Positions 3,037 through 61,783 of a stretch of DNA of 64,000 nt are shown piece after piece. Within the stretch, counting starts at the first letter, position 1, and each line of letters opens with the position of its first letter. Source of the stretch: a virus; the IMG/VR virus record IMGVR_UViG_3300028840_006907, positions 224,001-288,000 of that record; one strand, given 5' to 3'. The translations under genes and the position numbers were made by a program. Below the pieces are notes generated by a model, which was given only the letters and a program-made list of their open reading frames with translations, was not told the origin of the DNA and ran no database searches.

Positions 3037-3039
3037 AAA

Positions 3040-28200: not shown

Positions 28201-31200
28201 ATTATTTAGATTCAACCGATGTGACTCTTAATATAGGGCAAGAATTTCTTATTCGAGTTGAGAATAAATCGGGTGGAGCAATAGTAGATGGTCAAGCAGT
28301 CTACGTCACTGGTTCTAATGAAGATGTCCCTGAAGTAAATCTAGCAAAAGCAGATTCTTCAAATACTTCTGAGGTTTTAGGTATTGCTACTCAGGTAATT
28401 GAAAATGATACGCAAGGTTATGTTACTTGTGCTGGAAAAATACGTAACTTAAATACTAGTGATTGGACTTCAGGAGATTTACTTTATTTATCTGATAAAA
28501 CTGCTGGTGCATTGACCAATGTTCAACCTTCAGGTAATAGTAATATATTTAGTGTTCATATAGGTCTTGTTATAAGATCACATGCTAGCGATGGTGTTAT
28601 TTTTGCTCACCGTCATATTCCTCATTACCGTCCAGAACAGTTAAGAGATACCACTGCATCTTCTTTAACTGATGGTCAGGTTTTATCTTATGAAAGTAGT
28701 ACAGATAGATGGATAAATAGCACTTTACCTTCAATTACACAATCTATAGATAGAAATGAACCTGGTGGTTTTGTCAACAGAACAGACAGTACAGTAGGTT
28801 TTACTGAATCTACTCGTACTTTGCAAGTTACAACCGCGAGTTCTTATGATATCTATCAGGCTGGTACTAAATATACAATTAATGCAACCGATTCTACTCA
28901 AATTCCTGATACAAATGGTTTGCACTATATTTATTTCGATACCACTAATATGACTGTACAAACGAATCCAGCACTTCAGAATATTCTAGATATCATATAT
29001 GAAAAATCTCTTATTGCTGCGATATATTGGAACTCTTCCGATGATAGAGCTATTATAACCAATGATGAACGTCATGGTATTGTGATGGATGGTAGGACCC
29101 ATTCTTATCTTCATACTACTAGAGGAACTCAATATACATCACCAGGCTTAACTCCTGGAGATTTTGATATTGATGGAGCTGGAAGTAATGACAGTGCCAG
29201 TCAAATGAGTATTTCTGATGGGCAAATACAAGATGAAGATATTTGGTTTGAAATTCAAGATGGTAATCCTCAAATATTAGATCCTATAGCTGAAATTCCT
29301 GTTATTTATAAAGATGGTGCAGGAGCTGAATGGAAAATAAAATATTGGACAGCTTCATGGGCATCTGCAACCTCTTATCCTACTGGTACTATAATAAGAG
29401 AGAGTAATTCTTATTTTAGATCTAGTGGAGGAACTTCAGGTGGTGCTCTTCCTGCTTTTTCTGCAAATCGTGAACCAGGTGATACTATTGTTGATAATAC
29501 AATTACGTGGACAAATGTTGGTTCTCCATTGTCTCCTGTGATTAATTTTGTGGGAGGTAATTATAGATTAGCATATAATCAGTTTACTGGTGGGGCATGG
29601 CAACAAACCGAAGTAACAAATGGTAATTATGTTCTTACTCATATATTTGCTACGACTGATATTTTTCATCCTATTATGGCTATTCAAGGTGAGAATGAGT
29701 ATGGTAATGTTGCTGCAGCTAGAGCAGGAGCTTTAACAGAACTAGATAGTATTGTATTGTCTGGATTGGATTTTCCTGAATCAATATTTCTTGCTACAGT
29801 TATTTTTCAGACTAATAATACTTATACTAATCAAGTAAAAGCTCGAACTATCTCAACTGATACAGGTGATGATTTTATAGATTGGAGATTTTCTCAAATC
29901 AATGCAGCCTCAACAGGTGATCAAGGTCCTCAAGGAGAAACTGGTGTTCAAGGGGTACAGGGTGAAACCGGAGTACAGGGTGAAACCGGAGTAGCAGGAG
30001 CAACTGGTGTTCAAGGAATACAAGGCCAGACTGGAATCCAGGGAGAAACTGGAATTCAAGGAGCCACAGGTGTTGCCGGAGCAACTGGTGTTCAAGGGAT
30101 CCAAGGTCAGACTGGAATCCAAGGAGAAACTGGAATTCAAGGAACTACGGGAGTAGCAGGAGCAACTGGTGTCCAAGGAATCCAAGGAGAAACCGGAATT
30201 CAAGGAGAAACCGGAATTCAAGGAGCAACTGGTGTTCAAGGTATTCAAGGAACAACCGGAGTTCAAGGAATTCAGGGAACCACAGGAGTTCAGGGTGAAA
30301 CCGGAGTCCAAGGAATTCAAGGAACCACAGGAATTCAAGGAATTCAAGGAACCACAGGAGTTCAGGGTGAAACCGGAGTCCAAGGAATTCAAGGAACCAC
30401 AGGAATTCAGGGTGAAACCGGAATTCAAGGAATTCAAGGAACCACAGGAGTTCAGGGAACCACAGGAGTTCAAGGAATACAAGGAACCACAGGAGTTCAG
30501 GGTGAAACCGGAGTCCAAGGAATTCAAGGAACCACAGGAGTTCAGGGAGAAACTGGAGTTCAGGGGATCCAGGGTCAGACTGGAATTCAGGGAGAAACTG
30601 GAGTAGCCGGAGCAACTGGAGTACAGGGCCAAACAGGAGTTCAAGGAATCCAAGGTCAAACTGGTATACAGGGAGAAACCGGAGTAGCCGGAGCAACCGG
30701 AGTACAGGGTCAAACAGGAGTTCAAGGAATCCAAGGACAAACTGGTGTTCAAGGAGCAACCGGAGTAGCCGGAGCTACTGGAGTTCAGGGAGAAACAGGA
30801 ATTCAAGGAATCCAAGGACAAACTGGTATACAGGGAGAAACCGGGGTAGCCGGAGCAACCGGAGTACAGGGCCAAACAGGAGTTCAAGGAATTCAAGGAA
30901 ATACTGGTGTTCAAGGAGCAACCGGAGTTCAAGGAACTCAAGGAGATACTGGAGTTCAAGGAACAACTGGTGTTCAAGGTGAAACCGGTTTAGAAGCAGC
31001 TTATCATTTCTTTGCGGATCAGTTGGATAGTCCTAATAATGCTGATTGGGCTGTTAATGCTCTTGCTCCAGCTTCTGCTGATACTACAAATAATGCTCTT
31101 GTTGTACGTCGGTTTGATGATACGGATGAAGAAGGTGTAGGATTTATGGTAAATATTCCAACAGGAAGGACAAATATAGTATTTGGATTTAAGAGTAGGG

Positions 31201-31487
31201 CTGAAACAGCTCCTGGATCGGCGCATAATGTAAAACCAAAGGTATATGTCAGGGAAATACCTGATAATACTACTGTGGAAAGTTGGTCTTCTGGTTATGA
31301 TTTAAATGCTTTAAGTATGCCAACAAATACCTATTTTCAATATGATTCTCAATCTGTAGCTTTTACCGCTCTTGATATTACAGGTGGGAGATTGGCTCAA
31401 TTTGAAGTAACAAGAGATCATACGGGTGTAACTCCTGATTTAACTGGTGACTGGGACTTGCTAGAGCTTAATGTTTCATTTACCTAG
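22251..31487 (+). CDS. giant collagen-like repeat protein (3078 aa) with interspersed duplicated globular domains and a C-terminal non-collagenous domain; probable virion fibre
   Basis: RBS AAGGAG upstream; five long G-X-Y tracts; duplicated domain A (FAGFNYKAKTD... and WAGFSYNAKTD...) and domain B (PNWIDFVPQASAPSH... and VNYIDYEPQDTVPSH...). Confidence 0.8.
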   Translation: MAKTKRKWIELDWYNPNALRAQDIPYDQTESVKDAIDRAASGVLGPTGTTGSTGSTGSTGPTGPTGATGATGAGIQGETGVAGVQGATGTGGGGDTGVQGETGLPGATGIQGTTGIQGTTGIQGETGIQGHTGTVGTTGVQGETGSQGTTGIQGETGVKGETGIQGQTGIAGGAGFPGATGVQGETGVQGTTGVQGETGVQGTTGVAGATGVQGTTGVQGTTGIQGETGVQGDTGVGATGIQGTTGIQGQTGVQGITGAYGGPPGETGVKGETGVQGATGIQGLQGLQGTKGETGTQGIQGQTGVQGETGVQGQTGTGAPGATGVQGQTGIQGTTGIGLGSTGVAGATGIQGTTGVQGRTGVQGFTGAAGLGETGIQGATGVQGATGIQGTTGAGIQGATGISGDTGVQGATGIRGTTGAGIQGATGVQGIQGQTGAQGETGVQGETGIEGSQFAGFNYKAKTDNQSDTDPGIGNLKWSAVAQVTSSELYVDDADVNSTDLSNFYLTLKAADSLRIVRMEDPSQYQIFNITNVTDRTGWFRLSVTPVVSGGSTFSLNDNIILIFSISGPRGQTGVKGETGIQGTTGVAGATGVQGQTGIQGQTGIQGIQGQTGIQGQTGIQGQTGIQGQTGVGAQGATGVAGQTGVQGETGIQGQTGAGIQGTTGVQGVQGLTGVQGQTGAGIQGETGVQGTQGLTGIQGQTGAGIQGETGVQGNTGAFGGPPGETGVQGETGAQGLTGVQGQTGAGIQGATGIQGVTGVQGQTGAGIQGVTGIQGQTGIQGQTGVAGQTGVQGIQGQTGVAGQTGVQGIQGQTGIAGQTGVQGIQGQTGIQGQTGAGIQGTTGVAGATGVQGIQGQTGAGIQGTTGVQGTTGVQGETGTGIQGETGTQGIQGQTGIQGQTGIQGNTGVKGETGVQGFPGPQGTKGDTGAQGIQGETGTQGIQGQTGVAGETGVQGQTGTQGIQGQTGVAGATGAGIQGQTGVQGIQGQTGIQGQTGVQGETGIEGSLWAGFSYNAKTDDQSDTDPGTGNLKWSTVAQVNAGELYVDDTDQYSIDLSNFYLTLKAGDSLRIIRQEDPSQYQIYNITNVTDRTGWFRLSVTYVTSGGSTFSLNDNIILVFVKAGIQGQTGAQGIQGQTGVQGIQGQTGVQGATGTQGIQGPQGQIGLQGTTGVQGETGVQGTQGQTGIQGTTGAGIQGQTGVQGIQGQTGIQGQTGAGIQGATGIAGIDGQTGIQGETGIQGQTGAGIQGATGIAGIDGQTGIQGETGIQGQTGAGIQGETGIQGIQGLTGIQGTTGAGIQGETGVQGTQGQTGVQGQTGAGIQGETGVQGTQGQTGIQGQTGAGIQGVTGIQGIQGQTGIQGQTGAGIQGETGVQGETGIQGQTGAGIQGTTGVQGVQGLTGVQGQTGAGIQGETGVQGTQGLTGIQGQTGAGIQGETGVQGETGIQGQTGAGIQGVTGIQGQTGVQGTTGIQGQTGVGIQGVTGVQGIQGQTGIQGQTGIQGETGVSGATGIQGIQGQTGIQGQTGVQGETGVQGSTGVLGDPNWIDFVPQASAPSHQEARLFYDSTDHSLSYYNEESDVTLNLGRELYIRVYNATVSTITNGQVVYVTGVAAGYPTIDLADGSDLTKTNNIGVATHNIEASTFGYITLFGLVRDINTNAFSAGDEVWLSESTPGGYQSFAGTYAVKIGYVVVSDTLNGSIMVAMGDTEATIAGLNDVNLTSISDGQYLQWDSDSTKWVNVSESPQGDTGIQGATGVQGIQGTTGVQGATGVQGIQGTTGIQGQTGVQGETGIQGTTGVQGETGTAGIDGQTGVQGETGIAGIDGQTGVQGTTGVQGIQGTTGIQGETGTAGIDGQTGVQGETGTAGIDGQTGVQGTTGVQGTTGIQGTTGIQGTTGIQGETGTAGIDGQTGVQGTTGIQGETGVQGTTGIQGETGVQGTTGIQGETGVFGIVNYIDYEPQDTVPSHLEGRTFYDSTDHSLSYYLDSTDVTLNIGQEFLIRVENKSGGAIVDGQAVYVTGSNEDVPEVNLAKADSSNTSEVLGIATQVIENDTQGYVTCAGKIRNLNTSDWTSGDLLYLSDKTAGALTNVQPSGNSNIFSVHIGLVIRSHASDGVIFAHRHIPHYRPEQLRDTTASSLTDGQVLSYESSTDRWINSTLPSITQSIDRNEPGGFVNRTDSTVGFTESTRTLQVTTASSYDIYQAGTKYTINATDSTQIPDTNGLHYIYFDTTNMTVQTNPALQNILDIIYEKSLIAAIYWNSSDDRAIITNDERHGIVMDGRTHSYLHTTRGTQYTSPGLTPGDFDIDGAGSNDSASQMSISDGQIQDEDIWFEIQDGNPQILDPIAEIPVIYKDGAGAEWKIKYWTASWASATSYPTGTIIRESNSYFRSSGGTSGGALPAFSANREPGDTIVDNTITWTNVGSPLSPVINFVGGNYRLAYNQFTGGAWQQTEVTNGNYVLTHIFATTDIFHPIMAIQGENEYGNVAAARAGALTELDSIVLSGLDFPESIFLATVIFQTNNTYTNQVKARTISTDTGDDFIDWRFSQINAASTGDQGPQGETGVQGVQGETGVQGETGVAGATGVQGIQGQTGIQGETGIQGATGVAGATGVQGIQGQTGIQGETGIQGTTGVAGATGVQGIQGETGIQGETGIQGATGVQGIQGTTGVQGIQGTTGVQGETGVQGIQGTTGIQGIQGTTGVQGETGVQGIQGTTGIQGETGIQGIQGTTGVQGTTGVQGIQGTTGVQGETGVQGIQGTTGVQGETGVQGIQGQTGIQGETGVAGATGVQGQTGVQGIQGQTGIQGETGVAGATGVQGQTGVQGIQGQTGVQGATGVAGATGVQGETGIQGIQGQTGIQGETGVAGATGVQGQTGVQGIQGNTGVQGATGVQGTQGDTGVQGTTGVQGETGLEAAYHFFADQLDSPNNADWAVNALAPASADTTNNALVVRRFDDTDEEGVGFMVNIPTGRTNIVFGFKSRAETAPGSAHNVKPKVYVREIPDNTTVESWSSGYDLNALSMPTNTYFQYDSQSVAFTALDITGGRLAQFEVTRDHTGVTPDLTGDWDLLELNVSFT
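22380..23590 (+). repeat. collagen-like G-X-Y triplet-repeat tract 1 of the 3078-aa gene
   Basis: Direct reading of GxTGxQG codon periodicity. Confidence 0.9.
23950..25260 (+). repeat. collagen-like G-X-Y triplet-repeat tract 2
   Basis: Direct reading. Confidence 0.9.
25610..26870 (+). repeat. collagen-like G-X-Y triplet-repeat tract 3
   Basis: Direct reading; near-identical 60-nt blocks repeated. Confidence 0.9.
27490..28100 (+). repeat. collagen-like G-X-Y triplet-repeat tract 4 (GTAGIDGQTG subtype)
   Basis: Direct reading. Confidence 0.9.
29920..30980 (+). repeat. collagen-like G-X-Y triplet-repeat tract 5
   Basis: Direct reading. Confidence 0.9.
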
Positions 31488-31498
31488 AAGGAGTATTA

Positions 31499-32656
31499 AT
31501 GCCCGAATGGGGAATAGATACCGCAGGTACTACAACAACGACGCCGAATTGGTGTCGTGCTATGGGTGGAACCTCTCCCAATATAGACAATATGCTTTTA
31601 AAAAGTGTGTCTATATATGTAGGTTCTACTCATACTCAACAAATCCGATTAGCAGTTTATTCTGGTGGTAATTTAACGACAGGTCCTGATGGTGCAACTC
31701 TCGTTTATGATGCTGGGGTGACTTCTGGCACGGCTTTAAACACATGGTTAACTATAAATATTCCTACTGAAGTAATTCTTCCTAAAAATGCTGTGACATG
31801 GGTAGCATTTAGAAATAATGGTGGTTATATAATCCATTATTATGGTACCAGTCCAGCCGGAAATGATTTTCAAACTGCTCGTGGTAGATATAGCTCTACT
31901 GTTCTTGATGGAGATGAAACTTCAGCTTTTCCTTCTACATGGCCTTCTGATGGTGGAGCTTTTGCTGCTTTTTGGTATTCTACATATATTATTTATCAAA
32001 TAAGATATTATGGAGGATTATTTTTCGAATCATCGAGTAGTATGTATTTATCTTCCGTATCATCATTTACTCCTCCTGCAAATTGTTCTGTCTCTTTTTG
32101 GCTCTTTCATAGTAATGATGGTGGCACTCCTAGAATAGTTAGCCATAGTGATAATTGGGAAATATGGATAAATGCAAGTAATCAAATATCTAATGATATG
32201 AATTGGGGTACTTCTTTGGTATCTAGTGCTACTATTAATACTAATACACGATATTATATAGTATGTACAAGAGCTTCTGACAATACTTTACAAATATATG
32301 TAAATGGCCAATTTGATAATTCTAGTAGTGGTGGAACAGGTTCACCAGGATCGGCCACGTTTTATGTAGGTGTTAAACAAACATTATTACAATATTTTGA
32401 TGGTTATATAGAAGATTTAAGAATTTATAATAGAGTCCTTTCAGCAAATGAAATAGCCACTATTTATGGCTGTAAAGGAACAGATTCCATTACTTATGGC
32501 TTAATTCATAAATGGCCTATGCAAGAAAAGGCAATAGATGTGGTTGCTAGTGGAACCGGGTCTATAATAGATTTAGGTCCAAGTAGACTAGATTTGACTC
32601 CTAATAATAATCCTACTTATTCTGGAACACAATTGAAATTTAAAAGGTTTGGATAA
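31499..32656 (+). CDS. LamG/concanavalin A-like lectin domain protein, probable fibre-associated or receptor-binding
   Basis: C-terminal FYVG...FDGYIEDLRIYNRVLSANEIATIY, typical LamG-like jelly-roll ending; paralogous C-terminus shared with next three genes. Confidence 0.6.
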   Translation: MPEWGIDTAGTTTTTPNWCRAMGGTSPNIDNMLLKSVSIYVGSTHTQQIRLAVYSGGNLTTGPDGATLVYDAGVTSGTALNTWLTINIPTEVILPKNAVTWVAFRNNGGYIIHYYGTSPAGNDFQTARGRYSSTVLDGDETSAFPSTWPSDGGAFAAFWYSTYIIYQIRYYGGLFFESSSSMYLSSVSSFTPPANCSVSFWLFHSNDGGTPRIVSHSDNWEIWINASNQISNDMNWGTSLVSSATINTNTRYYIVCTRASDNTLQIYVNGQFDNSSSGGTGSPGSATFYVGVKQTLLQYFDGYIEDLRIYNRVLSANEIATIYGCKGTDSITYGLIHKWPMQEKAIDVVASGTGSIIDLGPSRLDLTPNNNPTYSGTQLKFKRFG

Positions 32657-34878
32657 TGGGTAAACAAATTTTTAGTTCAGAGGGTTCCGATACTTTCACT
32701 GTACCAAAAGGAGTGACTTCCATTACTGTCAAGGCATGGGGTGCAGGAGCTGGTGGTGGAGGGGGTGGAACGGCTAGTGTTGGTGGAGCCGGAGGTGGTG
32801 GAGGTTATGTTCAGGGTGATATATCTGTAACACCTGAAGAAACCCTTAATATTCATGTAGGTGGAAATGGAGGTTTAGGAACTTTTACAGGTACCGCAGC
32901 TTCTGGTGGTGGGGGAGGAGGTAAATCTTCAGTTTACAGAAGTACAACTCCTTTATTTGTAGCTGGCTCTGGAGGAGGCGGAGGTGGTGGTGATAATTCA
33001 TCAGGGACTCCGGCGGGAGCCGGAGGTGCTGGTGGAGGAAGTACTGGTGGGTCTGGTGGTTCTTCCGGAGGAGCTAGTGGCGGTAGTGGTGGCACTCAGT
33101 CAATTGGTGGAACACAGGGTTCTGGAGGTCAAAATGCAGGAGTTTTTGGAAAAGCTCGTGCAGAAACCACTTTAAATAATGCCTTAAATTTTGATGGTGA
33201 TCCTGAATATGTTACAATAGGAACAGATTCTGTTTTTAATTTTACTAATTCTTTTACCCTTGAATGTTGGATTAAACCCGATAATGTAACAGGATCTAAA
33301 AGGGTAATAAGTTCAAGATCATCTGATACCAATAATGGAGTTGGATTTGGTATTAACGGTAACAATCCTGCTTTTACAACATATGGTAAACAAGATTTTA
33401 CTTCTACTGGAACCGTTTCAGCAGGAGTTTGGGCTCATATAGCAGTAGTCTTTACTTCAGGTAATAATGCAAGATTTTATATAAATGGAGAGTTTATAAA
33501 TCAGGTAGACGGTACCCAAGCAGCTACAACTTCTGGTATATATATGGTTCTTGGTATGCTTGGTTTTTATGATGATGAACAATATTGGGTAGGTGAACTT
33601 GATGAAATAAGAATGTGGAATGATGAGCGTACTGATAAAGAGATATCTGATTATTATGCTCAAACTCTTACAGGTAGTGAAGCAAACTTAGTCGCTTACT
33701 ATAAATGTAATGAATCATCAGGTACAAATCTTCCCGACGAAACCACAAATAGTAATGATGGCACACTCCAAAATATGGAAGATGCTGATTGGGTTACATC
33801 AAGTTGGTCTCCATTGACAGACGCTGCTGATGCTGGGGCTGGTGGTGACGGTGGAATGGGTACTGGCACTGGGGGTGGTGGCTCTGGTGGCACAACATAT
33901 GGCGGTGATGGTGGAATTGGTGATAGTGGTGGCACCCCTGGATTTTCTGGCGGTGGCGGAGGCGGTGCAGGCTATGGTGGAGGTGGCGGGGGATCATGTT
34001 CGGTTTCTGGCGGAGACGCTGGTGGTGGTGGGGGCGCTGGCTCTAGCTATATTATAGGTACCGCTACGTCAACTACCAATACGCAAGCATCAGGCCAGAA
34101 TCCACCTAATACGGGCGACCCAGACTATACTGGTTCTGTAGGAGTTGGAGGAAATGGGGGTAGTACAAGTACAAATGGGAATAATGGTAATGATGGTTTA
34201 ATAGTTATCAGTTGGGTTGACCCTCCAGCATATATAGGTATGAAATTTGAATCAGATAGTTCACAATTTTTGTCTTCTGTAGCAAATTTTACCGCTCCTT
34301 CTAGTACAACTGTTACATTTTGGTTATCTTCTACTAATCTCACAGGATTAAAAAGAATTATTGGTTGGTCCGATTTTTGGGAAATAAAGACGATTGATAA
34401 TGATATATCTAATGATTTAAATGGAGAGTTAACCACTTATTCTACAACTCCATTAGATCTTAATACTCTTTATCATGTTGCTTGTACATATAATTCCTCT
34501 GATGATGCTGCGAAAGTATATATAGATGGGTCTCTTGATGGTACGGGTTCAAATACTGAAACTCCTTCTGGAACAACACTACAAATAGGTTTTAGACCTG
34601 GTGCACCTGACGGTTATTTTGACGGTTATTTAGGTGATATAAGAATTTATGATAGGGTTTTATCTGATTTTGAAATAGCCACAATTCATGCATGTCGAGG
34701 AACTGATGGAATAGTCCATGGTTTACGTAATAGGTATTTATTAAATGAAAGAGCAATGAATGTTGCTGCTGATGGGACAGGTTCGGTTAAAGATATGGCT
34801 CAGGATCAATTAAACATGACTCCAAATAATAGTCCTGTTTATGAAGGAACAACATTAAAATATAGAAGGATGGGTTGA
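32656..34878 (+). CDS. glycine-rich protein with two LamG-like domains (paralog family)
   Basis: N-terminal TFTVPKGVTSITVKAWGAGAGGGGGG glycine-rich domain; LamG-like FYINGEF...WVGELDEIRMWN and FDGYLGDIRIYDRVLSDFEIATIH. Confidence 0.65.
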   Translation: MGKQIFSSEGSDTFTVPKGVTSITVKAWGAGAGGGGGGTASVGGAGGGGGYVQGDISVTPEETLNIHVGGNGGLGTFTGTAASGGGGGGKSSVYRSTTPLFVAGSGGGGGGGDNSSGTPAGAGGAGGGSTGGSGGSSGGASGGSGGTQSIGGTQGSGGQNAGVFGKARAETTLNNALNFDGDPEYVTIGTDSVFNFTNSFTLECWIKPDNVTGSKRVISSRSSDTNNGVGFGINGNNPAFTTYGKQDFTSTGTVSAGVWAHIAVVFTSGNNARFYINGEFINQVDGTQAATTSGIYMVLGMLGFYDDEQYWVGELDEIRMWNDERTDKEISDYYAQTLTGSEANLVAYYKCNESSGTNLPDETTNSNDGTLQNMEDADWVTSSWSPLTDAADAGAGGDGGMGTGTGGGGSGGTTYGGDGGIGDSGGTPGFSGGGGGGAGYGGGGGGSCSVSGGDAGGGGGAGSSYIIGTATSTTNTQASGQNPPNTGDPDYTGSVGVGGNGGSTSTNGNNGNDGLIVISWVDPPAYIGMKFESDSSQFLSSVANFTAPSSTTVTFWLSSTNLTGLKRIIGWSDFWEIKTIDNDISNDLNGELTTYSTTPLDLNTLYHVACTYNSSDDAAKVYIDGSLDGTGSNTETPSGTTLQIGFRPGAPDGYFDGYLGDIRIYDRVLSDFEIATIHACRGTDGIVHGLRNRYLLNERAMNVAADGTGSVKDMAQDQLNMTPNNSPVYEGTTLKYRRMG

Positions 34879-34881
34879 TAA

Positions 34882-37173
34882 ATGGGACAGCAATCTTTCA
34901 GTACAGCCGGTTTAACTTCATTTCAAGTTCCTGTTGATATTACATCTATAACGGTAAAGTGTTGGGCTGGTGGAGCTGGTGGAGGAGCCGGGGGGACTTC
35001 TGGTGTTGGAGGAGTGGGTGGCGGTGGTGGCTATGTTCAGGGAGATATAACCGTCACTCCTTCGGAAATACTTAGTATTCATCTTGGGGGTGCTGGGAAT
35101 TCAGGAAGTTTTGGAGGAACTTCTGGTTCTGGAGGTGGTGGTGCTGGTCTATCTAGTGTCTCGCGTGGCTCAACACCTTTATTTGTAGCCGGAGCAGGTG
35201 GGGGAGGCGGTGGTGGAGACAATAGTAATCCGGCTGCTGGTGGAGCTGGTGGGGCAGGAGGTTCCTCTACCGGAGGAACTGGAGGCAGTTCTCTAAATGC
35301 CAATGGAGGAACTGGTGGAAGTCAAGTATCTGGTGGTACTGGTGGTACTGGTGGTATAGTTTCAGGTGCTGCTGGAGGTGCCCCTATTTCTGCAGCAGCT
35401 AATTTTGGTAATTGCCTTGACTTTGATGGAACAGATGAATGGGTCTCTTCAGCTAATTCTTATTCTAATCCTCAGACTTTTACAACTGAGTTATGGTTTA
35501 AAACTACCACTACTTCAGGAGGATTATTAATTGGTTTCGGAAACAGTCAAACAGGAACTTCTACCAGTTATGACAGAAGGATCTGGTTAAGTAATTCCGG
35601 AAATGTCTATTGTGGAGTTTATGCTGGATTAATTTTAGGAGTTCAGACGGTAAATTCTTCTGGTACATATAATGATGGAGAATGGCATCATGTTGCAATG
35701 GTCCATGACTCTGGAGGGTTTGAATTATTTGTTGATGGTATATCACAAGGAACAAATGCAAATCCTTCACAAGATACTTTTACAGGTTACTGGCGACTCG
35801 CAGGAACTACGGTTTGGTCGGGATGGTCTCCTGCTCCTACTAATAATTATTATGTAGGTCAAATTGATGAAGTCAGATTTTGGCAAGAAGCTCGAACAAC
35901 TTGTCAATTAATAAATAATGCAAATAAATATTTAGCTGGAACTGAGACTAATTTAGCTTTTTATTGGAAATTAAATGAATCTTCCGGTTCTACCGCAAAT
36001 GATGAAACTACCAATAATAATGATGGCACACTCCAAAATATGGAAGATGCAGACTGGGTTACTTCTAGTTGGAGTGGTAAGTGGATAGGTATTGGTACTG
36101 GAGGTGATGGTGGAGACGGTAATGATGGAGGGACTACTAGAGGATCAGAGGCTAATGGAGGTATCACTTGTGCTGGATCAGGTGGTACAGCCGATGTCGG
36201 TGCTGCTGGTTATGGTGGCGGTGGTGGCGGTGGCGCTGGTTACGGTGGAGGTGGAGGAGGCTCGGCTTCTCAAGCTTCAAATGCTGGTGGAGGTGGTGGA
36301 GGAGGTGGCTCCAGTTATATAATTGGTTCTGCTACGTCAACTACCAATACGCAAGCTTCGGGACAGAATCCTCCCAACACAAGCGACCCGGACTATACTG
36401 GTTCTGCAGGAGTTGGTGGAAATGGGGGTGCTACAAGTACTGCAGGATCAAATGGTAATAATGGTTTGATTGTTATTAGTTGGACAGAACCTCCGACATA
36501 TGTTGGGATAACATTTGTAGCGAGTAGTTCTCAAAGATTGGCATCAGTAGCAAATTTTACTCCTCCTCAAAATTGCTCCGTATCATGGTGGTTAAAACTA
36601 TCTTCGTTGAATCAGTTTGGGAGGACAGCAAGTCTAAGTGTTAATTGGGAAATAGGTCTATCTGATAATGCAGGTACTCCTACTGCTAATGGTATTATTA
36701 ATGCTATGAATAGTGGTGCTCTTTTGTATTCTTCAACAAGTCTTCAAGCTGATCTTCGTTATCATGTTGTATGTACAGCAACTTCTAGTGCCCGTCAAAT
36801 ATTTTTAAATGGTGTTCTTGATAATAGTGCTGCTTCTGGAGGGACTGCTCCTGCAGCAGGGACTCTTTATGTTGGATGTCAATATGGTGGAACTCTATAT
36901 TTTCTTGATGGGGCTATAGAGGATTTAAGGGTATATAATCGGATAATTACTGCAGAAGAAGTGGCTACAATTTATGCTTGTGAAGGAAGAGACGGTATAA
37001 CATATGGCTTAATACATCGATGGCCTATGAATGAAGGTGCAGCAGGTGTTGTAGCGAGTGGTACTGGTTCTGTAAAAGATGAGGCTACAAATCAATTGAA
37101 TTTAACTGCAACTAATAGTCCAGTTTATTCTGGATCACAATTGAATTATAGACGAAAATATAGGACTCATTAA
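34882..37173 (+). CDS. glycine-rich protein with two LamG-like domains (paralog of 32656-34878)
   Basis: Colinear with previous gene: FQVPVDITSITVKCWAGGAGGG..., LamG-like motifs, shared SSYIIG.ATSTTNTQASGQNPPNT block. Confidence 0.65.
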   Translation: MGQQSFSTAGLTSFQVPVDITSITVKCWAGGAGGGAGGTSGVGGVGGGGGYVQGDITVTPSEILSIHLGGAGNSGSFGGTSGSGGGGAGLSSVSRGSTPLFVAGAGGGGGGGDNSNPAAGGAGGAGGSSTGGTGGSSLNANGGTGGSQVSGGTGGTGGIVSGAAGGAPISAAANFGNCLDFDGTDEWVSSANSYSNPQTFTTELWFKTTTTSGGLLIGFGNSQTGTSTSYDRRIWLSNSGNVYCGVYAGLILGVQTVNSSGTYNDGEWHHVAMVHDSGGFELFVDGISQGTNANPSQDTFTGYWRLAGTTVWSGWSPAPTNNYYVGQIDEVRFWQEARTTCQLINNANKYLAGTETNLAFYWKLNESSGSTANDETTNNNDGTLQNMEDADWVTSSWSGKWIGIGTGGDGGDGNDGGTTRGSEANGGITCAGSGGTADVGAAGYGGGGGGGAGYGGGGGGSASQASNAGGGGGGGGSSYIIGSATSTTNTQASGQNPPNTSDPDYTGSAGVGGNGGATSTAGSNGNNGLIVISWTEPPTYVGITFVASSSQRLASVANFTPPQNCSVSWWLKLSSLNQFGRTASLSVNWEIGLSDNAGTPTANGIINAMNSGALLYSSTSLQADLRYHVVCTATSSARQIFLNGVLDNSAASGGTAPAAGTLYVGCQYGGTLYFLDGAIEDLRVYNRIITAEEVATIYACEGRDGITYGLIHRWPMNEGAAGVVASGTGSVKDEATNQLNLTATNSPVYSGSQLNYRRKYRTH

Positions 37174-42782: not shown

Positions 42783-43141
42783 TAACTGAAATTGATGATG
42801 ATAGTAAAGACATAAAGATAAAATTAGGAAATTTATTTGAAAAATATGAAAATCTTTATCGGGAAGGGAATAGACAGTTTAGAACAGAGAGAATAGCTTC
42901 TGCTGGGTCAATGGATGGTCTGGAAGAATTTCGTCGTTTGATGCTTATTGTAAAAAGAAATAAGGATGTAGTGGCCTCGCTAATGCGGGGTATAGCTAAT
43001 TTTAGGTCTATTTCAAATTTTAAGTTTGTAGAAGAGGAAGTAGAAATTTCAAAACCGAAACCAAAGAAAACAAAGAAAGCTACTCCTGAAAAAGTGATCA
43101 TACCTATACCAATAGTAGCGGAGGAATTTAATGGCGAATAA
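42761..43141 (+). CDS. hypothetical protein
   Basis: 126 aa ORF overlapping neighbours by a few codons. Confidence 0.4.
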   Translation: MPDFNKLITEIDDDSKDIKIKLGNLFEKYENLYREGNRQFRTERIASAGSMDGLEEFRRLMLIVKRNKDVVASLMRGIANFRSISNFKFVEEEVEISKPKPKKTKKATPEKVIIPIPIVAEEFNGE

Positions 43142-46100
43142 ACGAATAAGAGTTGTAACAGCGCAAGATAATGTACCGAAACGGGCAACTCGAAGAAAAG
43201 TAGTCAGCAGGGATACTAATCCTAAGGTGACAAATCTTACAGATAATGAAAAAAGAGCCAGACGGATTGCTACAACAACATCTATGGGATTCGGTCTTCG
43301 TTCTGCAAGTGATATTGTAAATAGCAGTGAAGCAAACTTTTACTCCCCCCAATTAAGTACTGATTTTCTTGAGAAGCCACAGAATCTACGTGAACGTAGA
43401 GCCTTTTATAGATTCTTTTATAATACGAATGAAATTATCGGACAATCTATTGATATTCATTCCACATTACCTCTTTCGAAATTGCGTCTCGTTCCTCCAA
43501 AAGGGAGAAATAAACATCAGAACAATTACGTTTTTAAGTTTTTCCAAAAGATGTGTGATGAAATGAAGCTCTTTAAAACACTTATTGAGATAACTCATGA
43601 ATACTTTCTTTTTGGTAATTGCTTGGCTAAGTATGCCGAGGTAAAGACTCCCTTTGGGTATAAGGAAGCGAAAGAGATAGAAGTAGGTGACTTCTTATTG
43701 ACAGATAAAGGGCGCTATAGGAAAGTCTTGAAGAAATGTGTAAGACCTTCTGAAAATGTTCTCAAAGTTAAATGTTGGAAAGATTTTAGGGAATTACCTG
43801 TTTCTGAAGAACATCCTATAGAAATATTAAAAGATGATGGCTTTGTTTTTGCCCAAGCTGAGGAATTGTCCTTAAACGACTATATCCGAGTTACTTGGCC
43901 TACTGAAATATCTGATAAAGAATATGTTCCTTTTGAATTTACAGATAAATATACAAAAGTGGAAAATGGCTATGAGTTAAAATTTGAAGTACTGCGTACC
44001 AGAAATCCTCATGCTTTCCGTGCTCGAAAAGAATTATTATCATGGCTAAGTTCTTTATCTAAACCAGTAATAAGGACAAGAAAACAGTTGTCCGAAGATT
44101 TTGATGTTCCTCTTTCCACATTGAATAATGTGATTTATAAACTTGGGAAAGAACTTGATGTAAAATTTCATGAAAGAATAGGTGCTTCAGGTTTTCAAAA
44201 AGGTTCTCAAGTAAAATGGTTTCCTATTGAGGACATAGAAGTCACGGATTCCTATAGTATTCATAAAACCCTATTTTTAGATGCTATTGATGGAATTGAT
44301 ATCAATAATGATTTTGCGTATCTTGCAGGATATTGGTTGGGAGATGGCACTTTGGCTCGTGATTCGCAAAGAGGGACATGGGGTCGTGGTTTGTGGCAAA
44401 TTTCAGTAGACCAGGAATTTGAAGGTTTAAATCGGATACGAAGTATTTTACATAATTTTTTTGGTTCTGGTAATGTGATAGAATGGAATTCGGGTAATCT
44501 ACTTTATTTAAAAGTTATCTCAAATCCTGCTTTTTTAGAATGGTGGGCTGAAAATTTTGGTGAAACTTCTTTCGGTAGAAATTATAAAAGAATTCCTGAA
44601 TGGTTTATAAAACTTCCTATGGAAAAACTTCAAAATTTTCTGGCAGGTTTGATAGATTCAGATGGTTGTATTAGTGTGAGTGGTGAAAATCAGAAATGTA
44701 TAACGAATATCTCAATGGCGTCTCGAAATATAATGGATTCTGTAAGAGACATAACTTTAAAATGTGGTGTTGTAGTGAATTACAACGAAGGAACTGAAAG
44801 AGAAGTTACTTTACCACAGGGAGACAAATGTTTCTCAAAAAAAATGTATACTGTAACAGCCTCAGATGAAGAATCCTGTAAAATTTTAACTCAATATGCC
44901 ACAAAAAGTATACCTGTAGATGCCCAATTCTCAGAAATGGGAAGATATTGGATAAGAACTGATTCAGGTTTAGCCTTCAAAATTAAGTCTATAAAAACAG
45001 AAGAATATAATGATTTAGTATACAATTTTGAAGTAGAAGAAGACCATACCTATCAAGTAGCTGGTTTTAGTACTCATAATTGCTTTATTTTTGCTGAAGA
45101 AGATGATTGGAAGGAAGGTATAACTACCGAAAACATAGGACAGAAAAAAGAAGAGGCCAAACAACGTTCCCAGCTCCTTAAAGATAAATTTGATATTAAG
45201 GATAAGAATCCTCTTTATAAAGGATGGAAAAAGCTTCTTATACTTCCTCCTGACCAGGTTAGGGTTCGTAAACTTCCTCTTACTGATGAGGTAGCAATTG
45301 AATATATGCCTGATCCGGAAACTCGAAAATTTCTGACTTCTGATATACCAATTGATCCTACAGATCCTACAAGAAGGTTAGACTATTCTATTTCTAATGA
45401 ATTGCGGGAAAAAGTACGTCAAAGTGGGGTTATACCTTTGGATACCGATCCTTATACAGGTTCACATGTTTTTCATCTGGCAAGAAAGAAATCACAATAT
45501 GAGCCTCTTGGTGTATCTATCGTTGAGCGTTGCATAAATACTCTTGTTTTAATGGATAAATTGAGACAGGCTCAGACATCGATTGCATCGCGTCACATGA
45601 CTCCTATGCGTGTTGTATGGGCTGAGGACTTAAATTCGGATGATGTCGATAATTTACGTGAGCAGGTTGATCTTGCTTTAGTAGATCCTGATTTCAGTAT
45701 TATTGCCAATTATGAAATTCACTGGGAAGAAATGGGATCGAATGGCCGTTTATTAGATGTAGAAGCGGAAATGGAAAGCTCATTAAATAGATTATTTGCC
45801 GGATTAGGTGTGACTCGGGAAATGTTAACTGGTGAAGGTACTTATACAGGGAGTAGAGTTTCATTAGAAATAATGAATACTATGTATCTTCTTTTCCGTG
45901 AAGTGCTCCAGGATTATATAGAAAATACATTGTTTAAGCCTATAGCTAAAAAGAAGGGTTTTATAGAATATGATGAATATGGTAATGAGACACTTCTTTA
46001 TCCGAAAATCAGTTTTACCCGATTGGCTATTAGAGATAATGAGCAATATTTTGACGCAGCCTTTCAGTTATATCAGAAGGGTTCAATTTCCATCGATCTT

Positions 46101-46484
46101 ATTTTGGATATTCTTAATATTGATCCTGATGCGACCAGGGAAAAGATTGAACAAGATCTGTTTACTGTTAATGATAGTCTTTTCAATGAAATGATGAGAA
46201 ACCTTTATACAAATGTGGCTGCCCCACTTGTAGAGGAAACTAATGTTACTGAGAAATTGGCTAAATATCTTCATTTAGAAAAGACTGAAAAACCTGAGGC
46301 CACAGAAGGTGAATCTCGATTTAGTTCTGTTAATGGAAAGGATTACAGGAAAAAGCTTTCAAAAGTCATGAAATACTTTATTGATAATCCTGAAAAATTA
46401 AATTCCATTTTTGCAAAGAATGGACAGTTAAAACCTAAACAAGCGAGAAATAATCAATGCGTTGTCGCTCAATCCCGGAATTAA
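43131..46484 (+). CDS. putative portal protein interrupted by an intein (extein about 630 aa)
   Basis: AGGAAT/GGAGG upstream; host protein ~630 aa leads a head-gene cluster; intein motifs inside (see mobile_element). Confidence 0.5.
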   Translation: MANKRIRVVTAQDNVPKRATRRKVVSRDTNPKVTNLTDNEKRARRIATTTSMGFGLRSASDIVNSSEANFYSPQLSTDFLEKPQNLRERRAFYRFFYNTNEIIGQSIDIHSTLPLSKLRLVPPKGRNKHQNNYVFKFFQKMCDEMKLFKTLIEITHEYFLFGNCLAKYAEVKTPFGYKEAKEIEVGDFLLTDKGRYRKVLKKCVRPSENVLKVKCWKDFRELPVSEEHPIEILKDDGFVFAQAEELSLNDYIRVTWPTEISDKEYVPFEFTDKYTKVENGYELKFEVLRTRNPHAFRARKELLSWLSSLSKPVIRTRKQLSEDFDVPLSTLNNVIYKLGKELDVKFHERIGASGFQKGSQVKWFPIEDIEVTDSYSIHKTLFLDAIDGIDINNDFAYLAGYWLGDGTLARDSQRGTWGRGLWQISVDQEFEGLNRIRSILHNFFGSGNVIEWNSGNLLYLKVISNPAFLEWWAENFGETSFGRNYKRIPEWFIKLPMEKLQNFLAGLIDSDGCISVSGENQKCITNISMASRNIMDSVRDITLKCGVVVNYNEGTEREVTLPQGDKCFSKKMYTVTASDEESCKILTQYATKSIPVDAQFSEMGRYWIRTDSGLAFKIKSIKTEEYNDLVYNFEVEEDHTYQVAGFSTHNCFIFAEEDDWKEGITTENIGQKKEEAKQRSQLLKDKFDIKDKNPLYKGWKKLLILPPDQVRVRKLPLTDEVAIEYMPDPETRKFLTSDIPIDPTDPTRRLDYSISNELREKVRQSGVIPLDTDPYTGSHVFHLARKKSQYEPLGVSIVERCINTLVLMDKLRQAQTSIASRHMTPMRVVWAEDLNSDDVDNLREQVDLALVDPDFSIIANYEIHWEEMGSNGRLLDVEAEMESSLNRLFAGLGVTREMLTGEGTYTGSRVSLEIMNTMYLLFREVLQDYIENTLFKPIAKKKGFIEYDEYGNETLLYPKISFTRLAIRDNEQYFDAAFQLYQKGSISIDLILDILNIDPDATREKIEQDLFTVNDSLFNEMMRNLYTNVAAPLVEETNVTEKLAKYLHLEKTEKPEATEGESRFSSVNGKDYRKKLSKVMKYFIDNPEKLNSIFAKNGQLKPKQARNNQCVVAQSRN
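43620..45080 (+). mobile_element. intein (487 aa) with LAGLIDADG homing endonuclease domain, in frame within the putative portal gene
   Basis: N-terminal splice Cys (FGN/CLAKYAEV); block B SEEHP; two LAGLIDADG motifs (FAYLAGYWLGDGT and LQNFLAGLIDSDGCI); C-terminal block VYNFEVEEDHTYQVAGFSTHN followed by +1 Cys. Confidence 0.85.
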
Positions 46485-49420: not shown

Positions 49421-50989
49421 ATGGCAATGCTAAAATACGGCTCGGCTGTTATAATCGATTCTGAAGTAAGCACTGATCAGTGGTCTAAGAGTGTTTGTTG
49501 CGGTAATAAAGGTAAACATTCTTGTGGTGAAGGTAAATGCCGGGTCAAGATTGCTAAAAATGTATTTGCTAAATATACTCCTGAGAAATACTTATTGAGC
49601 CATTGTACGATTATAGCTGCAGTTGATACTGAATTAGCTAATCCTTCTGATCCTAAAAGTGATTATTATATCCATCCTAATTTTTCCAAATATGTAAATA
49701 ATAATGGTGATGCATGGTCAAAGCAGATGCTTGCTTCATGTTACCGTTCTTTTATAGGTTCCCATAATTACTTGGAACATGTACAAATACCCGAACTCAG
49801 TAAGGGGAGGGTAATTGATGCTATTCTGAGAGAAGTCCCTATAGGACGAGATAAACAGGGTAAAGAGTTAACAACCTATTATGTTGATATTCTTGTTGCT
49901 ACTGAGAGAAAGCATAAACAGTTAATAGCTGATATTCAATCAAAGAAGCTTAATTCTCTTAGTATGGGATGTAAAATAGCTTATAGCATATGTACTAAAT
50001 GTGGTAAAAAGGCAGTAGATGAAACAGAGGCTTGTCAGCATATTCGTTTTGAAAAGAACAATATGTTTTATGATAATAATGGTGTTCAACGTAAGGTAGC
50101 TGAATTGTGTGGCCATTATTCTGAGCCTGAGAGTGTTACTTTCATCGATGCTTCATGGGTAAAAAATCCTGCATTTACTGGTGCTGTAATTCGAAATATC
50201 GTTAATCCACCAGAAAACATCTTGGCTAAAATTGAGGAAGCTAGTAAAAAAGAAAGTTATCTGATTCAAGAAGATGATTTTCTTAAGGCTGCTCATAAAA
50301 TAGCCCAGGATCCTCCAGCAGAAGAAGAACCTCCTGCAGAGGAAGAGACTGCTCCTGATACTGAGGCACCAGAAGCTCCTCCTGAAGAAGCTACTCCAGC
50401 CGATGAAGGTGGTGCTGTTGAAGAGCCTCCTGCCGAGTTACCTGAGGTAGATCAGAATAATGTCAAGACTTGGAAAAATGAGGTAAAGAAAAAGGTCCTT
50501 CAAGAATTGGGTGATGAATTAGTTGAAGAGATGACAAAAGAAGATGATATGGGACCTCGTGAATTAGAAACTTTGGATGATAGTTTAATTCAACCAACCG
50601 CATCTCAAGCATTAAAGCGTATGTGGGTATTAAAGGAAGGTTGGAATAAATTCCTGAAGGAAACGACAAATGGTTTAAGTAAAGATAATCATGATCGGTT
50701 AAAATTCGGTGCTTTCATAATGTTGAATAGCAATGATCCTAAAGTTTTATCTCATTATGGTTATAACCGTAGGGATTTTTTAGCAGTGATGTCTTACATA
50801 GATCAATTTTTTAAGAATCGTTTACCAGTAAGAGTGAAGAAAGCAGTAGCTAAGCTCAATGGTACGAAGGATTTATCATTAAAAGATACTGTACATTCTT
50901 TACAAAAGCTTTCGGGAAAAAGGCTTGCTGAAAAAGAAATTAAGAAGTCTTTAGTGTGGTTAAAATTAATGGATTTGTACAAAGAATAA
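49421..50989 (+). CDS. hypothetical head-module protein with Cys clusters and acidic Pro/Glu-rich linker
   Basis: 522 aa; CCGNKGKHSCGEGKC and CTKCGKK...CQH motifs; PAEEEPPAEEE region; position between portal and capsid genes. Confidence 0.5.
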   Translation: MAMLKYGSAVIIDSEVSTDQWSKSVCCGNKGKHSCGEGKCRVKIAKNVFAKYTPEKYLLSHCTIIAAVDTELANPSDPKSDYYIHPNFSKYVNNNGDAWSKQMLASCYRSFIGSHNYLEHVQIPELSKGRVIDAILREVPIGRDKQGKELTTYYVDILVATERKHKQLIADIQSKKLNSLSMGCKIAYSICTKCGKKAVDETEACQHIRFEKNNMFYDNNGVQRKVAELCGHYSEPESVTFIDASWVKNPAFTGAVIRNIVNPPENILAKIEEASKKESYLIQEDDFLKAAHKIAQDPPAEEEPPAEEETAPDTEAPEAPPEEATPADEGGAVEEPPAELPEVDQNNVKTWKNEVKKKVLQELGDELVEEMTKEDDMGPRELETLDDSLIQPTASQALKRMWVLKEGWNKFLKETTNGLSKDNHDRLKFGAFIMLNSNDPKVLSHYGYNRRDFLAVMSYIDQFFKNRLPVRVKKAVAKLNGTKDLSLKDTVHSLQKLSGKRLAEKEIKKSLVWLKLMDLYKE

Positions 50990-52564: not shown

Positions 52565-53437
52565 ATGGCTGAAATTAGCAATCAAGTAAAACAAGAAATT
52601 ATTGCTGAGTATATTAAAACTGCCGGTGGACGTGCGAAACTCGCTGCGTCAATGACTCAGCCTTTACGTCTTAGGAGAGACTACACCAGTGTAGGTCGTA
52701 AGACTTTCTTGGTAGAACAGCTCCCTGACGGTGCATTACCAATTTATGACAAAGATCCTAATGTCACAGCATATGTGATTGGTGAAGAAGGTGCCAACAT
52801 TTTGGCTATCACCAAACCTCGCCGTGTCATTTTTCCTTTGTTTGAAATTGCATCCAATCCGGAAATTCCGTTAACTCAAATCAAAGAACGTCGTTTCGAT
52901 CTCATCGAACGTGCTCAAGACCTTGCTAAATCAGAAATTCAGGCTGAAGAAGACACACGTGTTTTTGAAGTTCTGGATGCTGTAGCAACAAATGGTTTTG
53001 ATAACATCGGTGCAACGAATGCAGATATCCCTGCAACTGCTCCTCTTACACCTTCAGACCTCGCTGATGCTTTTGCACTAGTAGAGCGCCATGATCTGCG
53101 TGTAGCAAGAGTATTTGCCAATGCACTGGATTACAGTGACATTCGTAAGTGGGGACGTGATGTTCTTGATATCGAGAGTCAGGCAACATTACTTAAAACT
53201 GGTCTTATGGCAACCGTTTGGGGAGCCCAGATCATAGTTTCAAGAAAAGTTCCTGTAGGATACATCTATGTATGTGCAGAACCTGAATTCTTTGGCCGGA
53301 TACCTGTCCGTACAGAGCTTACAGTTCTCTCTGCTGATGATCCACGTAACCGTACAATCGGATTTTCATGTTTTGAAAATCTTGGTATTGGTTGCCACAA
53401 TCCTCTCGGCTTGGATCGTGTCGTACTTTCTCGATAA
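52565..53437 (+). CDS. putative major capsid protein
   Basis: SD GGGAGGTG; 290 aa; locally high GC suggesting strong expression; followed by strong intrinsic terminator; downstream of portal and scaffold-like genes. Confidence 0.45.
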   Translation: MAEISNQVKQEIIAEYIKTAGGRAKLAASMTQPLRLRRDYTSVGRKTFLVEQLPDGALPIYDKDPNVTAYVIGEEGANILAITKPRRVIFPLFEIASNPEIPLTQIKERRFDLIERAQDLAKSEIQAEEDTRVFEVLDAVATNGFDNIGATNADIPATAPLTPSDLADAFALVERHDLRVARVFANALDYSDIRKWGRDVLDIESQATLLKTGLMATVWGAQIIVSRKVPVGYIYVCAEPEFFGRIPVRTELTVLSADDPRNRTIGFSCFENLGIGCHNPLGLDRVVLSR

Positions 53438-57367: not shown

Positions 57368-58087
57368 TTGCCTATGGCAGAAGAACAAAAGAGCTATAAA
57401 GATGTTTATCCTGAGATTGACCCTCTCATTAAAGCAGATCCTCTCCTTAATTGGGGAAGATTTAAAAAAGAGCATCCTGATTTATCTAATAAAATTACAA
57501 GATGGTCTTATCTTCGTCGAAGAAGCATAATTTTAGGTTACGGGGGTTATGGGAGTAAGATGAAAAATAAGAAAAAGAGTAAGAAAGGTGCCCGTAGAAT
57601 GAAAAAGAAAGAAACTCCAAAGAAAGTTAAAGTAGTAAAGACTATCCAGAATTTAAAAGGTGTTACTGATGAGCAGATTGTCAAGTATGTTAGTGATACT
57701 CTTCCAACCTCGAAAAATAAAAGGGAATATGTCAAATTGGGTAAAATATTAGTAAAAAACCCAGGTATATCATATCCAGATTTAAAGAAAAAGAAGTTTG
57801 TAACAATGAGCAATCCGACTTATTACATATTCAGAAAAAACTTTATTAATCATTTCAGTGCTAATGGTAAAGTAGAGCCGGAAGTAGTTGAGACGAAACC
57901 TAAGAAAAAGAATGGCTATAAAAGAAAAGGGACTATTTATAGATCTATACTTATCGATAAAGAAGCTAGTGATGTTGAGGTAGCTCAAGCGAAAAAAATT
58001 ATTGGAGCAATGAGAGAAGAAGAAAAAATGAATTATGAAGTAGAAGAATTAAAAACTGGTTATGAAATCAGAAAGTTTACTAAATAA
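57368..58087 (+). CDS. hypothetical basic (Lys-rich) protein
   Basis: 239 aa; GAAAGGAG upstream. Confidence 0.5.
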   Translation: MPMAEEQKSYKDVYPEIDPLIKADPLLNWGRFKKEHPDLSNKITRWSYLRRRSIILGYGGYGSKMKNKKKSKKGARRMKKKETPKKVKVVKTIQNLKGVTDEQIVKYVSDTLPTSKNKREYVKLGKILVKNPGISYPDLKKKKFVTMSNPTYYIFRKNFINHFSANGKVEPEVVETKPKKKNGYKRKGTIYRSILIDKEASDVEVAQAKKIIGAMREEEKMNYEVEELKTGYEIRKFTK

Positions 58088-60607: not shown

Positions 60608-61783
60608 ATGATTCCAGAAAATAATTCTCTATTAGATTTGACAGGTGAAAAATTTGGAGACTGGAAAGTTATTTCTCGTGCTTCAAATATTAAAGGCCAT
60701 ACCAGATGGCTTTGTGTCTGTAATTGTGGTAAAAAAGTTCCTGTTTATACCTCAAGTTTAAGGTCAGGAAAATCAACTAGTTGTGGGCATAAGAAAAGAA
60801 ATTTCATAGATTTATCAGGTAAAAGATTTGGTAAGTTATATGTAATTGGTGAGACAACAAAAAACCCTTATACCTATGCCTTAAGATATCGTTCCAAAAA
60901 TAAAGGAAAATGTTGGGAATGTTTATGTGATTGTGGAAATAAATGTATTGTAACTTCTAGGAATTTGTTATCGGGTAATACTAAAAGTTGTGGTTGTTTA
61001 GGGATTTTTTCTGATCCCACTAAAGGTTCTAAAAAGGCTCTTTTTAGAAAATATAAAAGAAGTGCAAAAATAAGAGACCATTCTTTTAATATATCTTTTG
61101 ATCAATTTTTAGTTATGATAGATCAAGAGTGCTTTTATTGTGGAAAAAGTCCTTCTCAAACTTTTAAAGGTAATAGAGAAGATTTTCTTTATAATGGTAT
61201 TGATAGATTAGAGAGTAATAGAGGTTATGAAATAGGTAACATAGTTACTTGTTGTAAAGAATGTAATTATTTAAAATGGACAAAAAGTATTAACGATTTT
61301 TTAATATGGCTAAAAATGTGTTATAATCATTTAAATCTTGAGTTCACTGACTCCCTTTTAACTATCCAAATAAATTCAAATGAAGTGGATATTCAAAATA
61401 ATGAAAAATATAATCTAAGAAAAGATGATCCTTGTTATTACTCTAAGAATACGTTTTATAATGTTTATAAAAATGTTTGTGGTAAGAAAAGAGGGTTAAT
61501 TTTTGAATTGAGTTTTGAGGAATTCTTTTCTATTAGTCAAAGGAAATGTTTTTATTGTGGTATAGAACCTAATAAGCTCTTTAAAAAGGGTTCAAGTAAA
61601 GGATTCTTTTATAATGGTCTTGATAGGATAAATAATGACATGGGTTATATCAAAGATAATATTGTTACTTGTTGTTCAATTTGCAATGAATCTAAGATGA
61701 ATTTAGATCAAAAAATTTTTATTAATAGAATCAAAAAATGCTATGGATATTTAAAGAAATATTATTTAAAAAAATTTTTTTGA
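60608..61783 (+). CDS. Cys-rich protein with two tandem HNH-like zinc-binding units lacking the catalytic His
   Basis: Duplicated CFYCG...YNGIDR(L/I)..N.GY...NIVTCC..CN..K units; CxCxCG motifs upstream of each. Confidence 0.4.
   Translation: MIPENNSLLDLTGEKFGDWKVISRASNIKGHTRWLCVCNCGKKVPVYTSSLRSGKSTSCGHKKRNFIDLSGKRFGKLYVIGETTKNPYTYALRYRSKNKGKCWECLCDCGNKCIVTSRNLLSGNTKSCGCLGIFSDPTKGSKKALFRKYKRSAKIRDHSFNISFDQFLVMIDQECFYCGKSPSQTFKGNREDFLYNGIDRLESNRGYEIGNIVTCCKECNYLKWTKSINDFLIWLKMCYNHLNLEFTDSLLTIQINSNEVDIQNNEKYNLRKDDPCYYSKNTFYNVYKNVCGKKRGLIFELSFEEFFSISQRKCFYCGIEPNKLFKKGSSKGFFYNGLDRINNDMGYIKDNIVTCCSICNESKMNLDQKIFINRIKKCYGYLKKYYLKKFF

Follow-up and report, generated by a model that had tools for sequence, protein, structure and literature searches.

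The window analysed here is a stretch of 64,000 nucleotides (nt) of viral DNA, positions 224,001 to 288,000 of the IMG/VR virus record IMGVR_UViG_3300028840_006907, and it contains a phage portal gene with an in-frame insert that has the hallmarks of an intein. The interrupted gene encodes a single long precursor, which is divided by the insert into a short N-terminal and a long C-terminal portion of the portal protein (the N- and C-exteins); genes for other head proteins follow it on the same strand (Table 1). A precursor of identical sequence, 1117 amino acids (aa) in length, is read on 6 contigs, for example on the 388,651-bp contig Ga0180437_10000019 of the JGI metagenome 3300017963, and the source is an uncultured 'huge' phage of about 389 kb. 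That several contigs of great length carry the gene unchanged agrees with its being functional. A megablast search found no near-identical DNA among GenBank phages, so the source phage is not close to any deposited genome. The evidence reviewed below leads us to conclude with high confidence that the insert is a real intein within the portal gene, and it is very probably of the canonical class-1 type, with a LAGLIDADG homing endonuclease embedded in it.

The insert and its host protein

The preliminary description of this DNA, made from the letters alone, reported a 487-aa in-frame insert that begins with a Cys (FGN/CLAKYAEV, where the slash marks the insertion point) and ends in THN followed by Cys. 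Its coordinates, length, and boundary residues proved exact. In the translation, the insert starts as CLAKYAEV at precursor residue 164, and the sequence STHN/C occupies residues 647–651; at the DNA level the 5' junction reads GGTAAT/TGCTTGGCT. Excision leaves 163 + 467 = 630 aa, as anticipated by the earlier estimate of about 630 aa, with a calculated mass of 73.0 kDa, and the junction peptide expected of the spliced portal is TLIEITHEYFLFGNCFIFAEEDDWK. The two LAGLIDADG motifs that had been placed between the ends of the insert were both located.

Table 1. Features of the interrupted portal gene and of the downstream head genes (positions in the window, nt)
Feature	Position	Strand	Remarks
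Portal precursor gene with intein	43131..46484	+	One unbroken open reading frame, 1117 aa, calculated 129.2 kDa
N-extein	43131..43619	+	Portal residues 1–163, ending THEYFLFGN; from translation and homologue alignment
Intein, class-1 type with LAGLIDADG homing endonuclease	43620..45080	+	487 aa, 56.2 kDa, precursor residues 164–650, 1461 nt
Cys1 codon TGC (block A)	43620..43622	+	Expected nucleophile of the first splicing step
Block B, SEEH	43803..43814	+	Intein aa 62–65
Extra module	43917..44294	+	About 125 aa, intein aa ~100–225, between N-terminal Hint half and endonuclease; predicted winged-helix-like
LAGLIDADG motif 1 (block C), LAGYWLGDG	44322..44348	+	Catalytic Asp kept
LAGLIDADG motif 2 (block E), LAGLIDSDG	44640..44666	+	Catalytic Asp kept
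Block F, VYNFEVEEDH	45018..45047	+	V467, N469, E473, and D475 invariant
Block G, FSTHN	45066..45080	+	Penultimate His and terminal Asn, the latter expected to cyclise
Cys+1 codon TGC	45081..45083	+	First C-extein residue; expected trans-esterification nucleophile
C-extein	45081..46484	+	467 aa and stop codon, bulk of the portal fold; PHROG, portal homologues, Foldseek
Head maturation protease homologue	49421..50989	+	phrog_18299, 1.4e-12
Major head protein	52565..53437	+	phrog_2522, 3.5e-53

An alignment of 31 inteins shows no variation at the splicing residues C1, H65, D475, H486, and N487. Both a Hint fold and, for the endonuclease domain, a LAGLIDADG alpha-beta fold were found, and the Pfam families LAGLIDADG_3 (45.4 bits, cut-off 22.5) and Hom_end (27.9 bits, cut-off 21.1) match the insert above threshold. 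The earlier assignment as a homing-endonuclease intein is thus upheld by the class-1 hallmarks, the Hint fold, the two-motif LAGLIDADG domain, and the exactly empty alleles of close syntenic relatives. The extra module that separates the N-terminal Hint half from the endonuclease is, judged from its predicted structure, probably an accessory DNA-binding domain. It is confined to the nuclease-intact class of inteins of 487–491 aa in this family; a speculative reading, of low probability, is that it helps intein endonucleases to recognise their targets and is a kind of accessory domain not described before. Base composition was considered as a mark of foreign origin and rejected, the difference between intein and extein being small in both GC content (0.338 vs 0.358) and GC content at third codon positions (0.220 vs 0.262).

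The host protein had been proposed to be the portal at a head-gene cluster, and this identification holds. The spliced 630-aa extein matches PHROG 16240 'portal protein' at 4e-31, with two more portal PHROGs matching more weakly. A tblastn search with the extein found a single unbroken homologue in LR745208, an unannotated 485-kb uncultured phage (46% identity), the annotated portal of Tunturiibacter phage Tunturi_5 (37% identity), and gp14, the portal of Bacillus phage G (genome of 498 kb; 28% identity, E 5e-45). A match of the extein to portal families had been named as a check, and the outcome is divided: the PHROG match stands, while all Pfam portal models remain below threshold, including Portal_Mu (14.7 bits against a cut-off of 23.9, E 0.02). 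The precomputed Pfam matches of the 1117-aa protein comprise intein and endonuclease families only and no portal family, and a profile built from 84 family sequences found no solved portal in the Protein Data Bank (PDB) by sequence. The portal call therefore rests on the PHROG match, the annotated homologues, the fold, and the gene context of the downstream protease and major head protein.

The portal structure was modelled on a natural intein-free allele, P0020, which is 85% identical to the window protein and exactly 630 aa long. The core of the model has a predicted local distance difference test score (pLDDT) above 85. A Foldseek search of the PDB with this model returned portals as all of its top 50 matches, including those of Pakpunavirus P7-1, lambda (gpB), Chi, T4 (gp20), HK97, and HFTV1, with a best E of 1.5e-9 at a probability of 1.00 and 151 matches at E <= 0.001.

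Empty, occupied, and decayed alleles

The extein search yielded 1572 homologues at E <= 1e-10, many of them on contigs of 200–590 kb. An alignment was made of the best 120 of these, the window protein, and eleven portal alleles that the search with the intein had returned. The intein-free alleles (n = 96) are ungapped across the junction; Gly at position -2 is present in 96/96 and Asn at position -1 in 89/96, and the +1 residue is Ala in 46, Cys in 21, Thr in 10, Val in 9, Ser in 7, Gly in 2, and Ile in 1. A complete intein is found in 22 alleles at one common G-N/C point, with Asn-1 and Cys+1 in 22/22. Across 84 homologues, G162 never varies and N163 is kept in at least 90%, and the surrounding motif is a conserved H-E-Y-x-L-x-G-N-(A/C)-F-x-F-x-E that is interrupted directly after its G-N. 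In the P0020 model, this point is a helix-to-strand junction with a pLDDT of about 93. Inteins usually favour conserved host sites, and a conserved junction at the high-confidence core of the portal agrees with this preference.

The P0020 allele lies in a locus (L006) that is gene-for-gene syntenic with the window and has 79–82% identical extein DNA, which makes the presence or absence of the 1461-nt insert a clean polymorphism. The natural empty-allele junction of this locus reads GTAACTCACGAGTATTTTTTATTTGGTAAC/GCATTCCTGTTTTGTGAAGATGATGATTGG, and the synthetic intein-free junction of the window reads ATAACTCATGAATACTTTCTTTTTGGTAAT/TGCTTTATTTTTGCTGAAGAAGATGATTGG. Intein-bearing relatives occur at the same site in separate JGI, ENA, NCBI, and Logan data sets.

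Both the spread and the decay of the element can be observed within the portal family, where the 22 complete inteins fall into three size classes. Six full inteins of 487–491 aa, the window intein included, consist of the Hint domain, the extra module of about 125 aa, and the LAGLIDADG domain, with both catalytic Asp residues (GDG/SDG) kept. Six decayed inteins of 351–363 aa are without the extra module and have mutated catalytic positions in one or both motifs (GNG, GSQ, NKG; SSG, DSS, DSC, DSN, DSM). Ten mini-inteins of 150–185 aa have lost the nuclease. Together with the empty alleles, these three states give the impression of a homing cycle captured within a single gene family. Over 359 aligned residues, the 361-aa intein of P0083 shares 60% identity with that of the window (extein, 68%), which marks it as a decayed derivative of the same lineage. 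The divergence of intein and extein is decoupled, in P0083 as in two other alleles: P0026 is 83% identical to the window in its extein and 42% in its intein, and P0023 is 85% and 75% identical, respectively. Such decoupling fits horizontal movement or independent invasion.

Inferred splicing and homing, and alternative explanations

With its splicing residues in place, the intein most likely splices, and by analogy with the established class-1 pathway, splicing, cleavage, and homing would proceed as follows. The 129-kDa precursor would be made as a single chain, and its Cys1 would undergo an N-S acyl shift with the help of the block B His. The resulting thioester would be attacked by Cys+1 in a trans-esterification, Asn487 would cyclise with the aid of the penultimate His and the block F residues, and an S-N shift would establish a normal peptide bond between the exteins. 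The expected products are a 73.0-kDa portal subunit of 630 aa, fit for ring assembly, and a free 56.2-kDa intein. The ring should not be able to assemble with 56 kDa of extra protein in the middle of the portal fold, so splicing presumably occurs quickly and efficiently. Once released, the intein would cleave portal alleles that lack an intein, in co-infecting relatives, at the G-N junction followed by A or C, with the LAGLIDADG domain as the DNA cutter and the winged-helix-like module probably helping; the break would be repaired from the intein-bearing copy, and the element would spread in this way. On balance, the nuclease of the window intein is more likely than not still active.

Several observations weigh against this interpretation. 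The score of the insert against the Pfam model Intein_splicing (PF14890; 33.9 bits, E 3.4e-8) is slightly below the gathering cut-off of 35.8 bits. Position 62 of block B, which is Thr in most relatives, is Ser in the window intein and in P0023, a replacement that is probably tolerated. The template-modelling scores (TM-scores) of the P0020 model to solved portals are modest (0.39/0.53), its mean pLDDT is 71, and it is a stand-in allele that was modelled and not the window protein itself. Purifying selection on every intein part is argued for by the ratio of nonsynonymous to synonymous substitution rates (dN/dS) between the window intein and the P0023 copy (locus L008), which is about 0.05–0.16 across the Hint halves, the extra module, and the nuclease domain, and about 0.14–0.16 in the LAGLIDADG domain and the extra module, but dS exceeds 1 and is saturated, so these values are rough. 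Lastly, the empty junction of the nearest intein-free relative is only 74% identical at the DNA level to the spliced junction of the window (60 nt), and present-day homing into the nearest intein-free lineage is accordingly not assured.

This last point bears on the alternative that survives best, namely that the intein splices but its endonuclease no longer homes, the element being a fixed, vertically inherited passenger on its way to a mini-intein. Decay is common in the family, with 6/22 alleles without the catalytic Asp residues and 10/22 reduced to mini-inteins, and the target DNA of the closest intein-free relative differs at about one quarter of its positions. Against it stand the intact catalytic Asp residues of the window intein and of all six members of 487–491 aa, the low dN/dS of the nuclease domain and the extra module, and the decoupled divergence of intein and extein; we regard this alternative as rather unlikely, if worth keeping in mind. 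Much less probable is a view in which splicing is conditional and serves as a checkpoint on procapsid initiation. A disulfide between Cys1 and Cys+1, or another trap sensitive to redox or host state, would keep the 129-kDa precursor inactive, and the intein would have been co-opted to time portal assembly in huge phages and would not be a pure parasite.

It is highly improbable that the insert is a permanent, non-splicing domain derived from Hint and LAGLIDADG modules and kept in the mature portal. Nothing specific speaks for it, although exapted Hint and LAGLIDADG domains exist and WhiA is among the structural matches. All splicing residues are kept, Cys+1 is present in every intein-bearing allele and in only 21/96 intein-free alleles, the insert lies within the high-confidence core of the portal fold, and most homologues function without it. 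Equally hard to sustain is the idea that the host is some other large virion or packaging protein: the sub-threshold Pfam models and the failure of the family profile to reach solved portals by sequence would permit it, but the PHROG portal match, the homologues annotated as portals in phage G and Tunturi_5, the uniform Foldseek result, and the position of the gene upstream of the protease and the major head protein contradict it. An assembly chimera or sequencing artefact, conceivable for a sequence of metagenome origin, has a negligible probability given the identical protein on 6 contigs, the perfect reading frame, and the same-site alleles in independent data sets.

Related elements and neighbouring genes

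The intein of the window joins a group of portal inteins that are already known. The preliminary description considered inteins in structural genes to be less common than those in replication genes, but this overstated their rarity, since portals are recurrent intein hosts in mycobacteriophages, actinobacteriophages, and the Eggerthella phage LE2-3. Six portal inteins have been reported in mycobacteriophage cluster C1 (PMC5050341), and a survey of actinobacteriophages described five separate portal-intein groups (10.1101/2025.01.02.630785). As in the window, these inteins interrupt portal genes of tailed phages, and many carry LAGLIDADG nucleases; their hosts differ in portal family (the survey cites InterPro IPR009279), lineage, and genome size, a distinction drawn without direct comparison of sequences or insertion sites.

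The portal LE23_67 of LE2-3 (MW679026, nt 2236-5457, L003), annotated 'portal protein', is 1073 aa long and holds an unannotated 398-aa LAGLIDADG intein with the junctions NPVMRA/CHPAG...FASHN/CLEVY. This portal is distantly homologous to that of the window (E 3e-14), and its intein is 25% identical to the window intein over the nuclease and the C-terminal Hint half (E 9e-23). The LE2-3 intein lacks the extra module and is inserted elsewhere, at the equivalent of Q105/S106 in the window portal, 58 residues upstream of N163/C164. In this superfamily of distantly related portals, inteins therefore occupy two insertion points or more. More remote are PI-SceI of yeast VMA1 and the archaeal VMA and PolB inteins TliVMA, PI-PkoII, and PI-PfuI, which are only 11–19% identical to the window intein and reside in ATPase or polymerase hosts instead of a phage portal; the winged-helix-like prediction suggests that the extra module is also unlike the DRR of PI-SceI or the stirrup of PI-PfuI. 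The cyanophage-like gp41-1 (PDB 6qaz, 6riz) differs further, being a naturally split mini-intein with no endonuclease and a helicase-type extein. The Tunturi_5 portal (PP885688, nt 2869-5316, L002) is about 190–220 aa longer than the family norm, and its extra length was considered as an intein and rejected as a low-complexity stretch rich in Ala, Pro, Gly, and Asp; it lies shortly after a conserved G-E-A-F-L-F motif, in the variable region that follows the intein site of the window.

That selfish elements reside in essential genes of jumbo and huge phages is a known theme. On inteins in huge phages, the literature search returned general statements only (Jug phages, a jumbo-phage review). No paper on the portal family of the window or on its intein site was found in a searchable literature that is incomplete. 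What is mildly new is only that empty, active, decayed, and mini states are seen together at one site across the family, and that the winged-helix-like addition goes with the nuclease-intact class alone.

A second related intein was not found in the window: the tblastn matches of 22 portal inteins outside 43620-45080 are at chance level, the best having an E of 0.16. Weak recurrent matches at 31383-31424 and 58022-58081 were rejected as inteins, as they are 'FEVTRDH'-like strings with no His-Asn-Cys junction, located at the ends of a collagen-like protein and a basic protein, respectively. A free-standing 391-aa open reading frame at 60608-61783 (+) has matches to the PHROG HNH endonuclease and endonuclease VII families (E 1e-27 to 7e-29) and no Pfam match at 1e-3; it is a candidate for another homing-type element in the window, independent of the intein.

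The stretch 31499-37173 (+), which lies upstream of the head module, encodes virion structural or tail-fibre-like proteins with PHROG 'virion structural protein' matches; its first part (31499-32656, +) has a Laminin_G_3/ConA-like lectin domain. Two giant open reading frames contain collagen repeats, and their products presumably serve the huge phage as fibres or decoration: one of 3078 aa (22251-31487, +) with 21 Pfam-matched stretches of collagen triple-helix repeats (E 6e-225), and one of 2337 aa (3040-10053, +) that combines collagen repeats with a BNR/YCF48-like beta-propeller. Two multidomain sugar-modification proteins (19016-21643 and 61866-63947, both +), one with methyltransferase, GT2, TPR, and GT9 domains and the other with a glycosyltransferase and an S-adenosylmethionine (SAM)-methyltransferase, suggest modification of virion or host-surface glycans. 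A superfamily-1 helicase of the UvrD/Rep type (10276-12027, Pfam E 4.5e-71) is encoded on the minus strand, opposite to the structural genes, and a single tRNA-Leu with the anticodon TAG (17956-18032, +) is intergenic between divergently oriented gene blocks.

The window intein leaves the current understanding of inteins unchanged. For annotation, the true portal is a protein of 630 aa and not of 1117 aa, and gene callers or family models will miss or mis-size it. A presumably fast-splicing Cys/Cys intein combined with a new LAGLIDADG specificity and a winged-helix addition could be of modest interest to protein engineering and meganuclease work. For the biology of this phage family, the presence of empty, nuclease-intact, nuclease-dead, and mini states at one site in an essential gene constitutes a compact natural data set for the homing cycle and for exchange from phage to phage.

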